This document shows, piece by piece, positions 60,235 through 64,000 of a stretch of 64,000 nt of DNA. Source of the stretch: an uncultured Planctomycetota bacterium. Its GTDB lineage: Bacteria; Planctomycetota; Planctomycetia; Planctomycetales; Planctomycetaceae. The notes below the pieces were generated by a model that had not been told where the DNA came from, ran no database searches, and worked only from the letters and a program-made list of their open reading frames with translations. How positions within the stretch are numbered: the stretch's first letter is position 1; each line of letters opens with the position of its first letter. The stretch spans positions 958,036 through 1,022,035 of the forward strand of contig CAVXHA010000003.1 of NCBI GenBank assembly GCA_963761455.1. The letters run 5' to 3'. Position numbers and translations under genes: made by a program.

Positions 60235-63200
60235 ATGGCCGTTGACGATCGACTGAGTGATTTGCTCGTGGAATGGGAACAAGGGCGGCGGAGCGGTCAG
60301 GAGCCGTCGCTCGAGGAGCTGTGTCGCGACACGCCCGATCTGCTTCCCGTGGTGAGGGAGTCAATCGATTCCCTCAAGGCGACCGACTGGATGTTCGGCC
60401 CGGAGCCGAGTGATTTTTCTTCTTCGGAGTCTTCGGTTGCCGATTCCGAGCGCGCCGCCTTGCACGACACGGAGCTGCCCGCGTCGCACCTCACGGTGCA
60501 GGAGTTCGCGGCGTCGATTTTTCAAAGCGGTCTGTTGTCGCGGGCCGAGATCGACGAGCTGAAAGAGCGTCTCGACGCCAGTGCGTTGCCGGGCGAGGCG
60601 CGCGAGATCGCCTCGAAACTCGTGACCGAAGGCAAACTCACGCGATACCAGGCGGCCGTGCTGCTCAAGGCGTCGAAGAATCCGCTGTTGGTCGATAACT
60701 ATGTGATCCTCGACACGCTCGACACGGGGGGCATGGGGCTGGTCTTCAAGGCGCTGCACCGGTCGATGAACCGCGTCGTCGCGCTCAAGCTTTTGCCCGC
60801 CTCGATGATGAGTGCCCGCGACACCGTGAAACGCTTCCAGCGCGAGGTGCAGGCGGCCGCCGCGCTCAAGCATCCCAACATCGTTGCCGCCTACGATGCC
60901 GACGAATCCGAAGAGATCGCCTACCTCGTGCTGGAATACGTCGAGGGGACCAACCTCTTCCGGTTGGTGAAAGAAGAGGGGCCGCGCTCGCTCGCTCAGG
61001 CCGCCGACTACGTCCGCCAGGCGGCGACCGGCCTGGCGTACCTGCACTCTCGCGGCATCATCCACCGCGACGTCAAGCCGGCCAACCTGATCCTGGCCAA
61101 CGACGGCACGGTCAAGCTCTTGGACATGGGACTCGTGCGGTTCGCATCCTCCGAAGATCTCTCCTGCGCCGAGATGGACCAGGAGCTGACGCAAGCGGGA
61201 ATCGTGATCGGCACAGTCGCCTACATGTCGCCCGAACAGGCGCTCGACACGCGCTCCGCCGATCAGCGGTCGGACATCTATAGCCTGGGCTGCACGCTCT
61301 TTTTCCTGCTCACGGGCCGATCGCTCTACCACGAGGAAACCGGCATGAAGACGCTCTTGGCCCACCGCGAGCAGCCGGTCCCCTCGCTCCGCGAATTCTG
61401 CGAAGAGGCCCCGGTCTCGCTCGACGCGGTGTTCCGCACGATGGTGGCCAAGCGGCCGGCCGATCGGCTGCAAACGATGGACGAAGTCATTGCCGCCCTC
61501 GACGCCTGCGTGCCGCCGCCTGCCGCGCCGACTGGCCGTGCGGGCCGGCCTGTCCCGAGCGCACCGCCGCTGCGAACACGGACGGATCGCGACCGAGTGT
61601 GGCAATCGCGCCGATTCCGGATCGCCGCCGCGGTCACCGCGCTGGCCGCGGCCCTGCTCGGCAGCATCTATCTGGCGGTTATCGTCATTCGCATCAAGAC
61701 CTCGCAGGGGACAACCGAAGTCAGCGTCAACGACCCGAACGCAAAGATCGAAATCGAGTCTCAGCCCCAAGGGCCCGCCGTTTCGCAGCTTCGATCGCCC
61801 TTCGAGACGAGTCAGCCAGTCGGAAACGACCGGGATCGGAGAATCGGTCTGTCCTCCGGCATCGCGCCTGCAGCGAAGCCCAAGCCGCCGGTCCACGTCG
61901 TGACGGCGACGGTTCGCAAGGGGGACTTCGACGTCTACTTGTCGGGCCTGCAGGGCGCGGTGCGTGCCTCGCAGATCGTTTCGATCCGCACCCGGGTTGA
62001 CGGCGAGATCACCAAGGTCAATTTCACCGAAGGGCAAGTCGTTCACATGGGTGACGTGCTGTTTGAAATCGACCCCCGGCCCTACAAGATTCGATTGGAT
62101 GAAGCCGAGGCAAAGCTCGCCAAGGACAAACAATCAGTCGTGCACGCCCAAGAGGAGTTGCAAGCGGTGAAAAAATTACGCGCGAACTCCGCGGTCTCCC
62201 TGAGCGATAAGCTCGCGGCGGTCGCTCAATACGAAGGCCTCGTCAAAACCGACGGGGCGCTCGTCGAAGAGGCCCAGCTTCAGCTCAAGGGGTGCCAGAT
62301 CGTGGCTCCCATCAGTGGACGGATCGGACTCCGGGCGTTGGATAAAGGGAACATTGTTCAGGCCGCCAGCTCGACCAGGCTGGCCACCATCGCGCAGTTT
62401 CAGCCGATCGACGTCTTTTTTTCCATCCCGCAGGACCAAATCGATCGCGTCCAGCAGAAGCTGAGCTCAACAAAAGAGACCATGGTCGAAATCTGGAACC
62501 ACGGCGGCGGTGCCAAGATTGGGACGGCACGGCTTGTCGGGCTCGACAACGCGTTAAATCCGGGGACCGGAACCGTTGAGGTGAAAGCCCGTTCTGCGAA
62601 CGTCGACAATCGCTTGTTTCCCGGTGAGTTCGTGGACGTGCGGCTCCTCGTTGACACGCTGCACGACGCCGTGATCGTGCCGACGGCCGCCGTGCAGCAC
62701 GGCGACGCGGAGACGTTCGCCTACATCGTCAGGCCGGATCAGACGGTCGAGAAACGCAAGCCGATCCTCGGCCCCAGCGAGACGCAGGAGACGGTCGTGA
62801 CGAGCGGCCTCTCGCCGGGCGACGTCGTGGTCGTCGAAGGAACCGACAAGCTGTCCGACGGATTCAAGGTGGAAGCCCAAACCCCGACCGCCAATAGCAC
62901 TGCGAATCTCGATCGGCAGGTCGCCGATTGGGTGCTGGCCAATCGGGGAACCGTCAACCTCAAGGAATTTCGCGGCCGAACGTTCCAGTTCGTCGATGCG
63001 CTCCCCCCGACCGACTTTCACATTGAGACGATCAATCTGAAGGATTACGTCACCGACGATTCGCGCGGCGCGGCACCGGCGGAAGGCGTCGGCCTGCGCC
63101 GGTCCCGGTCGGGATTCGGCCGCCGCCGGCTGCGAGTCCAGAACCAGGCGGCCGGCGGCGACGAGCAGACGGGGCGGATGTTTCACCGCATCGAATTCAG

Positions 63201-64000
63201 CGAGGCCGACCTCGACCGTTTGGCGTCGTTGAAGGAATTGCGAACACTGATCTTTGCCTCATCGGCACTCACCGACGACGTCTTCAGCGCGATTGAAGGG
63301 GCTCACGAAGCTCGACGCGCTCGGATTGGAGGGCTCGAGCATCACCGATGCGGGCCTCACCTCCCTCCTGGGCATGACGGAATTGACGTATTTGGATCTC
63401 GATTCGACCGCCATCACGGATGCGGGATTGAAGGAGATCGCCAAGCTCAAGTCGTTGAATGATCTGAGTCTCGTCTCGGAAGGCGAGCGGAGCGGCCGGA
63501 TTCAGAGAACCCATCCCTCTCTTCGACTTGGCCAAACGCGCACCACGGTGAACGGCATCGACGAGCTGCAGCGGGCGCTTCCCAACTGCATCGTTTTCGC
63601 ATCGCACCTGCCCGATTTTTCGCCGGCCCCTCCCGCGCCGGGCCGCTCGGATCGTGATTGGGCCCAATGGCTGCTCCCGCCGAATCAGGGCTCCGGGAAG
63701 CACGTCTTCACCGACCTTGATCCGGAGACTGCCATTAGTTCCTTCGAGGAATTGCCTCCCGTCGATTTCCACATCGTGCAGGTCAACTTCGACCTGAATC
63801 TCATCTCGGAAACCATGCTGCGGCGGATGGCCGGCCTGGCAAAGCTCAGGGGGCTTTATTTCAAGCACCTGCCGACGTCCGCGTTTGCCGGCCTGGGCGA
63901 CCTCAAGCAGCTCGAGCACCTGTGGATCGAGGAAACCGACGCGACCGACGACGCGCTGCAAGTCCTCGGCAACCTGACCCGGCTCAAATTGCTGAAGCTG
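60235..64000 (+). CDS. Ser/Thr kinase, TM helix, MdtA/AcrA-type periplasmic adaptor (MFP) and leucine-rich-repeat region. The 3' end lies outside the window. Frame switches occur only after about 63300.
   Basis: One uninterrupted frame from 60235 to about 63300. Kinase: GGMGLVFKA, VALKLL, HRDVKPANLIL, DMGLV, GTVAYMSPEQ. TM: FRIAAAVTALAAALLGSIYLAVIVI (about 61610-61700). MFP (about 61885-62880) is colinear by eye with E. coli MdtA: IRTRVDGEITKVNFTEGQVVHMGDVLFEIDPRPY, LAKDKQ, IVAPISGRIGL, IDVFFSIPQ, GTGTVEVKARSANVDNRLFPGEFVDVRLLVDT, AVIVPTAAVQ, GDVVVVEGTDKL. LRR-like LTKLDALGLEGSSITDAGLTSLLGMTELTYLDLDSTAITDAGLKEIAKLKSL.. continues to the window end. Confidence 0.85.

Follow-up and report, generated by a model that had tools for sequence, protein, structure and literature searches.

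The 64,000-nucleotide stretch analysed here (positions 958,036 to 1,022,035 of the forward strand of contig CAVXHA010000003.1, assembly GCA_963761455.1, an uncultured bacterium of the Planctomycetaceae; hereafter the window) ends in a gene that joins a transmembrane (TM) Ser/Thr kinase to a complete periplasmic adaptor of the MdtA/AcrA type, with an extracytoplasmic function (ECF) sigma factor gene directly upstream and a divergent cluster of export genes beyond it. The open reading frame (ORF) at 60235-63462 on the forward strand translates into 1075 amino acids without an internal stop. Its N-terminal cytoplasmic region (residues 1-156, 60235-60702) has no Pfam match and is 80-96% conserved among the orthologous fusions, with a ratio of nonsynonymous to synonymous divergence (dN/dS) of about 0.1. 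A Hanks-type Ser/Thr kinase domain follows (residues 157-414, 60703-61476; Pfam Pkinase PF00069, 169.6 bits against a cut-off of 31.7) and carries the motifs GGMGLV at residue 165, ALK at 183, HRDVKPAN at 277, DMG at 297 and SPE at 332, including the catalytic Lys, the HRD Asp, the Asn and the Asp of the DFG position (D297). The sole Kyte-Doolittle peak above 1.6 corresponds to a single N-in TM helix at residues ~462-486 (61618-61692), and its Arg-rich flank on the N-terminal, cytoplasmic side places the kinase in the cytoplasm and the adaptor in the periplasm. The adaptor itself, also termed membrane fusion protein (MFP), occupies residues 542-885 (61858-62889), with its alpha-hairpin at residues 615-685 (62077-62289; helices at 615-649 and 657-685 in the AlphaFold2 model).

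Downstream of the adaptor, frame 0 is kept through a module with the sequence DRQVADWVLANRGTV and a linker rich in Arg and into the first leucine-rich repeat (LRR) block (62920-63283), and further LRR blocks are read in frame +1 from 63284 to 64000 and past the window end, both parts being colinear with the related proteins P0002 and P0004. The LRR stretch scored 27.0 bits with Pfam LRR_8, equal to the cut-off, while LRR_14, LRR_4 and LRR_6 stayed under theirs. Relatives of full length have about 1400-1800 residues, whereas the window copy ends at the window edge; the gene measures about 5.4 kb in the related loci L028 and L001, and the window therefore holds roughly its first 70%. The original prediction, a reading of the window made without database searches, had proposed a kinase, one TM helix and an adaptor in one frame, followed by LRR modules. 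The first part agrees fully with our results, and of the second the start of the first LRR block stands in frame, but after ~63285 the listed frame leaves the LRR region owing to one extra C. The ORF represents a real gene, in which a transmembrane Hanks-type kinase and a complete periplasmic adaptor are fused in one frame.

The periplasmic region had been described as colinear, block by block, with MdtA-type adaptors, and both profile and structure searches bear this out. The best-scoring adaptor family was NF008589 (MdtA/MuxA; 300 bits, E 2e-89), in which residues 542-885 cover positions 48-391 of 392, yet the score lies under the equivalog cut-off of 391 bits and the domain is thus no MdtA/MuxA equivalog. 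TIGR01730 (RND_mfp) matched residues 556-881 at 208 bits (cut-off 94.9) over positions 2-321 of 322, a significant match across the stretch of about 550-880 for which an adaptor had been proposed, and Pfam HlyD_D23, HlyD_3 and Biotin_lipoyl_2 together span residues 579-800. Sequence matches in the PDB were AcrA, MexC-like and MexA proteins, residues about 551-889 aligning with AcrA 38-383, that is, with the whole mature adaptor. The AlphaFold2 model of residues 501-900 has a mean pLDDT of 85.8; Foldseek aligned it with AcrA, TMexC and MexA at E values of 1e-33 to 1e-24 over 340-384 columns (AcrA, E 6e-33), and the target-normalised TM-score to the AcrA core 2f1m was 0.87-0.90. All four subdomains are present, namely membrane-proximal (MP), beta-barrel, lipoyl and alpha-hairpin, the last being of AcrA length. 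The fused domain thus resembles the MdtA/MuxA, AcrA and MexA adaptors in its four-subdomain fold and in the core motif PISGRIGLR (the predicted string IVAPISGRIGL lies at residues 688-698), and the closest standalone planctomycetal MdtA-like adaptors are 51% identical to it. Unlike those standalone proteins, however, it has a kinase and TM helix at its N-terminus and LRRs at its C-terminus, is not adjoined by a resistance-nodulation-division (RND) pump gene, and carries a degenerate hairpin-tip motif. It also lacks a signal peptide, a lipobox and a start of its own, the MdtA profile match beginning only at position 48, and no adaptor anchor separate from the kinase TM helix is present, this helix being the only hydrophobic segment in the ORF.

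An assembly or annotation artefact, in which an indel in a noisy long-read assembly had joined adjacent kinase and adaptor genes, deserves consideration at such a locus. Across the 12.8 kb that the window (51181-64000) shares in the same gene order with L028, the two differ by 48 single-base indels, and the LRR tail of the window copy is frameshifted by the extra C at 63285 (forward strand), which occurs neither in L028 (97.3% identical) nor in L001. Without it L028 reads DVLARLKGLTKL, which keeps the frame and is colinear with the orthologous sequences, and both L028 and L001 read DVLARLKGL in frame, while the ORF as listed ends with ~60 codons of out-of-frame read-through and the LRR continues in frame +1 from 63284. 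At other sites, 63066 and 63578 among them, it is the window that matches the orthologs and L028 that departs from them, so indel errors are scattered over both assemblies. The extra C is probably an assembly error as judged from these alignments, and several genes in 51181-64000, such as a split gene for an outer-membrane factor (OMF) discussed below, are probably broken in the same way. None of this reaches the fusion point. No indel separates the window from L028 between 61168 and 63066, an interval that includes the TM-adaptor junction, and the same in-frame kinase-TM-adaptor-LRR junction recurs in eight assemblies of different projects. Four independent assemblies carry it in intact single ORFs, namely P0001 (Logan assembly SRR33744910, 1480 aa), P0004 (JGI metagenome, 1411 aa), P0241 (1632 aa) and P0242 (1621 aa), and it is also carried by P0002, P0005 and P0003, the last being the protein of L028. 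Together with an adaptor match that begins at profile position 48, where an independent gene would bring its own signal peptide and start codon, these observations effectively refute an artefact, to which we attach a negligible probability; no stop or frameshift parts the kinase from the adaptor.

The fusion is rare. Among 5.8 billion protein clusters the kinase-TM-adaptor-LRR proteins P0001, P0002, P0004 and P0005 were found, to which L028 adds P0003, and P0241 and P0242 came from an exhaustive HMMER search of 1.84 billion representatives. Among the best 150 matches of the latter, all at or above 362 bits, the combination of kinase and adaptor occurred only in this clade, although weaker fusions may have been missed. 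A scan of GTDB species representatives found one metagenome-assembled genome only, that of the uncultured Planctomycetaceae bacterium MFD04434.bin.2.78, and two metagenome scans gave standalone adaptors of 38-51% identity and no fusion. A homolog search with the adaptor only was not used for counting, as P0001-P0005 (55-100% identical) were missing from its list. The clade thus comprises seven fusion proteins from eight assemblies plus the window, from uncultured soil Planctomycetaceae, and the architecture is not that of a common, characterised family. The supposition that no such system had been described also held: our literature search found no description of a kinase-adaptor fusion, and a 2026 review of periplasmic adaptors mentions none (PMC13328181).

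With respect to origin, the fused domain is closest, among standalone adaptors, to MdtA/MuxA-type proteins from Planctomycetota and other phyla, to which it is about 51% identical. In a neighbour-joining tree with 40 of these standalone relatives, the five fusion adaptor domains (window, P0001, P0002, P0004 and P0005) formed one clade in 200 of 200 bootstraps, which points to a single acquisition of the adaptor, with long-branch attraction as a possible cause of the grouping. There are also many adaptor-less kinase-LRR proteins (P0007-P0022), which are 72-79% identical to the query over ~50-60% of its length (N-terminus, kinase and TM helix) and share with the fusion the TM-proximal motif IRIK..G.T...V.DP, the type of LRR block and an orthologous upstream sigma factor. 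At the position of the adaptor these paralogs carry the first LRR block or, in the close paralogs P0019-P0021, which are kinase-TM-FliL proteins, a FliL domain. P0005 (locus L002) has a FliL-like insert between the TM helix and the adaptor at residues ~550-650 (Pfam FliL, 26.3 bits), while the insert at the equivalent place in P0241 (locus L029) has no Pfam FliL match and that of P0242 differs again. The linker is evidently plastic, and comparison of these sequences suggests that in this kinase family the periplasmic modules are exchanged much like cassettes. Both chain ends of an adaptor lie at its membrane-proximal domain, and the domain could therefore have been inserted as a side arm without displacing the LRRs downstream.

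The gene directly upstream of the kinase, on the same strand, encodes an ECF sigma factor (59441-60073; Pfam Sigma70_ECF PF07638 and Sigma70_r2/r4_2; TIGR02937, 82 bits). The ORF as listed begins at 59180, and the conserved start is the ATG at 59441; TIGR02999 gave 56 bits, under its cut-off of 126. Sigma factor and kinase are adjacent in this order in all eight fusion loci that were fetched (nine with the window) as well as in all five adaptor-less paralog loci, and no anti-sigma gene accompanies the pair. The window sigma factor is 80-93% identical to the intact ones of the other fusion loci and 56% identical to the frameshifted call of L002. A promoter-like element, TGTGTC-N17-TACGCTT (59373-59402, forward strand), lies ~40 nt upstream of the sigma start and is exact or nearly so in the window and in seven of the eight related fusion loci, L028 having one extra spacer base and L030 a degenerate -35 part (position weight matrix score 23.7). 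It occurs once in the window where no copy is expected, and a match to GCTTACGCTT at 18166 is within chance expectation. Autoregulation of the sigma factor is plausible on this sequence evidence.

This arrangement is that of a known class. Kinase-dependent activation of ECF sigma factors has been established for EcfP/PknT and EcfK/PknS (PMC8999054, PMC13147305), and activation by kinases has been predicted for the planctomycetal groups ECF59, ECF61, ECF62 and ECF217 (PMC8999054, PMC7826278, PMC13147305). In EcfP/PknT of Vibrio parahaemolyticus (ECF43) and EcfK/PknS of Xanthomonas citri the sigma gene likewise lies directly upstream of that of a TM Ser/Thr kinase, and like this class the window pair is without an anti-sigma gene and has a Thr within the motif equivalent to DAED of region sigma-2.2. 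No kinase of this class whose sensor domain is an efflux adaptor came up in our literature search. The fusion represents no new category of system; it is a rare, lineage-restricted form of the ECF sigma/Ser-Thr kinase class with a sensor module not described before.

The fusion loci also differ from their paralogs in the neighbourhood. Divergently from the window sigma gene runs a cluster on the reverse strand that opens with a TolC-like OMF gene (57758-59110; OEP PF02321, E 2.8e-10; TIGR01844, E 6e-11 but under cut-off). It continues with a second OMF-like gene (55876-57556) split by a probable frameshift into two overlapping ORFs, 56534-57556 and 55876-56844, of which only the latter matches OEP (E 9e-5) and whose stretch has many indels relative to L028, and with a third OMF-like gene (54272-55879; OEP, E 8e-8; TIGR01844, E 3.5e-8). 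The three neighbouring TolC paralogs of the original prediction are thus recognisable by their OEP matches, but these are weak and one gene is split by a frameshift. The last gene of the cluster encodes a standalone adaptor with a long hairpin (52580-54250; HlyD_D23, E 8e-24; TIGR01730, 204 bits), which is 26% identical to the fused adaptor and has counterparts in L001, L002, L004 and L028; a mixed hexamer of the two, like that of TriA/TriB, seems unlikely given the mismatch in hairpin length. Local duplication of this gene as the donor of the fused domain was also considered and rejected, since the two are only 26% identical, over the C-terminal half, and the neighbour has a far longer hairpin.

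Export genes (OMF, standalone adaptor or ABC transporter) lie upstream of the sigma gene in all eight fetched fusion loci. L028, like the window, has three OEP-like genes, one of them split, and an adaptor; L001 has OMFs, adaptor fragments and an ABC transporter; L002 has an adaptor and an ABC transporter; L004 has an adaptor; L005 has an OMF at its contig end; L029 has an ABC transporter and no standalone adaptor; and in L030 an ABC exporter is the immediate divergent neighbour. In contrast, none of the five adaptor-less kinase-LRR paralog loci has export genes, although all have the sigma gene; instead these five share the context aminotransferase-VanZ-(beta-lactamase-PadR)-sigma-kinase. The adaptor is thus tied to export-gene neighbourhoods only, and the export machinery would therefore be the source of the signal, the regulated target, or both.

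Three further features of this region may be recorded. Between the sigma gene and the first OMF gene there is a second stretch of conserved non-coding sequence (59150-59255), with the pattern GGCGCGGACC...ATCAG.TCATCG.CCG...TTGCCGAA.TTAACGATTCTGCCG.TTTTGACGG; it is found in the window, L001 and L005, where an OMF is the divergent neighbour, but not in L004 and L002, and may serve the OMF cluster as a promoter or leader. The export cluster is flanked on its other side by a gene of the 3-keto-disaccharide-hydrolase family (51521-52513, forward strand), syntenic in L001, L002, L004, L028 and L029, the short contigs L005 and L030 ending before it, and by another Ser/Thr kinase gene (49717-51363, forward strand) whose product is 36% identical in the kinase domain and has DFG. 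Farther away, an 823-aa ORF on the reverse strand (37467-39938) combines a partial kinase domain (residues 163-256 only) with TIR and FGE-sulfatase (SUMF1-like) domains, an unusual architecture in which the kinase part may be truncated or frameshifted.

In the original prediction the adaptor served as a trans-envelope sensor, its hairpin docking to a neighbouring TolC-like OMF and the kinase passing this signal on to the ECF sigma factor, in a manner resembling FecA-FecR-FecI. The OMF genes directly divergent from sigma in the window, L001, L005 and L028 fit this proposal, as do a confidently modelled hairpin of AcrA length and the full R-L-S tip motif of P0005. The tip of the hairpin, however, speaks otherwise. 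TolC is bound through the motif RxxxLxxxxxxS/T, in which the exchange of a single residue abolishes binding in AcrA, MacA and HlyD (PMC3391258). The R-L-S/T motif is present in all 40 closest standalone adaptors, but among the seven fusion proteins, with the window counted, it is intact in P0005 (R-L-S) only. The window has A-L-S (62164-62199, forward strand) next to a four-residue deletion that removes Q..DAQ, and the others read R-W-A (P0001), R-P-P (P0002), L-L-A (P0004), R-L-P (P0241) and R-V-S with altered spacing (P0242). The state of the motif does not follow the presence of OMF genes, which do not adjoin the fusion in L002, L004 and L029. Constraint on the hairpin points in the same direction. 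Among 108 columns that are each at least 95% invariant in the 40 standalone relatives, the fusions keep 93% in the N-terminal lipoyl half, 85% in the C-terminal MP part, 83% in the C-terminal lipoyl half, 75% in the N-terminal MP strand and 70% in the beta-barrel, but 49% in the hairpin, where dN/dS reaches 0.64. Decay of the tip motif thus disfavours canonical tip-to-tip docking, which appears unlikely from the sequences, while a diverged interaction with the outer-membrane channel is conceivable; the trans-envelope sensor as a whole we judge unlikely. Of the original interpretation, the links to the sigma factor and to export accordingly stay plausible, whereas docking to an OMF is disfavoured.

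A related alternative is that the protein is a true tripartite-pump adaptor anchored by the kinase TM helix in place of a lipid or a helix of its own. The kinase would then be stationed at the pump, which it might regulate, or it might itself be subject to regulation from the cytoplasm. The four subdomains, the well-conserved MP and lipoyl parts and a TIGR01730 score above cut-off would suit a working adaptor, and so would L029, where an ABC transporter is near and no standalone adaptor is found, and L030 with its directly divergent ABC exporter; EmrA and other adaptors are likewise anchored by an N-terminal TM helix (PMC13328181). But the fused domain is of the RND (MdtA) type, and no RND pump gene was found in the 28-64 kb part of the window or within 10 kb on either side in L001, L002, L004, L028, L029 and L030, nor was an RND or ABC efflux pump found at 28-52 kb of the window. 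In addition, the OMF-docking motif has decayed, an LRR extension of 500-900 residues follows at the C-terminus of the MP domain that must pack on the pump, which would be expected to clash, and the adaptor domains have diverged fast in comparison with standalone relatives, to 44-60% identity, where the kinases of the same fusions share 91-98%. A working pump adaptor therefore seems to us improbable.

The same divergence raises the opposite possibility, that the adaptor is a passive passenger, i.e. a tolerated insertion, spacer or decaying relic, with all sensing done by the LRR blocks. Adaptor-less paralogs with the same kinase and LRRs, the plastic linker with its FliL-like insert in P0005 and other insert in P0242, and an adaptor that evolves much faster than the kinase would all accord with a passenger. 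Among the fusion orthologs, dN/dS is about 0.05 in the kinase, 0.25-0.38 in the whole adaptor (44-60% amino-acid identity) and 0.24-0.64 in the hairpin (29-45% identity), the highest among the adaptor subdomains tested. These values show that the fused adaptor is under purifying selection, far looser than that on the kinase and loosest in the hairpin. A dN/dS well under 1 across the domain is nevertheless not what a passenger would show. The adaptor is full-length in all seven fusion proteins despite saturated synonymous divergence (dS 1.1-1.8), the core motif PIxGRIGLR and the lipoyl residues are kept, and export genes accompany all eight fusion loci and none of the five adaptor-less ones. 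We consider a mere passenger quite unlikely. As a separate observation, dS in the same genes (window, L001, L002, L004 and L005) is 0.35-0.78 in the kinase against 1.1-1.8 in the adaptor, for which possible causes are gene conversion between the many almost identical kinase modules of the paralogs or a strong constraint on codons or RNA.

The explanation we favour, with moderate confidence, is an ECF-sigma-paired sensor kinase in which a recruited adaptor serves for input or oligomerisation and is linked to export machinery. While the architecture and its conservation, the single origin, the pattern of selection, the decayed tip motif and the association with sigma and export genes are matters of observation, we infer each functional step. 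The adaptor module would be the input: it may self-associate, join an inner-membrane exporter or a partner adaptor, or change shape on binding a ligand, and such an event would draw the cytoplasmic kinase domains together for trans-autophosphorylation. The kinase would then phosphorylate and activate the co-encoded ECF sigma factor, which would act on the conserved promoter of its own gene and probably also drive the export genes alongside. Adaptors are known to assemble as hexamers, to bind transporters via their MP and beta-barrel domains and, as in CusB, to alter their conformation or assembly state on binding a ligand or partner (PMC13328181), and any of these would cluster the kinase domains conditionally. 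A more specific version, in which the kinase uses the adaptor to join or sample a neighbouring export machine (an ABC or other exporter with adaptor and OMFs) and is clustered by its assembly or by transport so as to activate the sigma factor, is conceivable though rather doubtful. By analogy, BceS/BceAB flux sensing and FecA-FecR-FecI likewise have a signalling protein that reads a transport machine and controls a dedicated regulator, in many cases the one in charge of that machine. There is no homology to either, and both use separate proteins (a histidine kinase in the one, an anti-sigma factor and a TonB-dependent receptor in the other), whereas here the transport-machine part lies covalently within a Ser/Thr kinase.

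Several points weigh against a recruited input module. The kinase has DMG where DFG is canonical, as do all its close homologs. Where DAED is expected the sigma factor reads E-E-T-D-D, and that of the paralog L007 E-Q-T-D-D, with a Thr there, the predicted phosphorylation site, and the acidic residues kept, while EcfP of ECF43 has an uncharged STTA at this position and the kinase-paired groups outside ECF43 reportedly resemble E-E-T-D-D (PMC8999054). Phosphorylation is therefore less obviously needed than in ECF43, and restoration of charge as in EcfP cannot simply be assumed for the window sigma from its sequence. Signalling from the kinase to the adjacent sigma factor, as originally proposed, would have in its favour the upstream sigma gene of every fetched locus and a class established elsewhere. 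Adjacency suggests a regulatory link to the export genes, but no second copy of the promoter-like element, near these genes or elsewhere in the window or the fusion loci, was found by exact, degenerate or position weight matrix scans, and the lack of RND pump genes near the fusions counts here as well. The adaptor also has a dN of 0.30-0.52 where that of the kinase is 0.013-0.05, a rate of evolution about tenfold higher, which could reflect a weak or shifting function, and the large LRR region, rather than the adaptor, could be the true ligand sensor.

If the kinase does sample a neighbouring export machine, the protein would sense the assembly or flux of a tripartite pump through a hard-wired, covalent connection, something so far undescribed among both Ser/Thr kinases and periplasmic adaptors, and interest would be high should the kinase prove to read pump assembly or activity directly. 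A complete adaptor kept by selection within a kinase suggests that this fold is reusable as a sensor or oligomerisation module, and it offers a testable case for bacteria that read the state of their export machinery directly and not via the stress it relieves. For the many barely characterised planctomycetal pairs of ECF sigma factor and kinase, the fusion gives a rare hint both of the input, which the sensor domain suggests may be export machinery, and of the output, to which the neighbourhood points.

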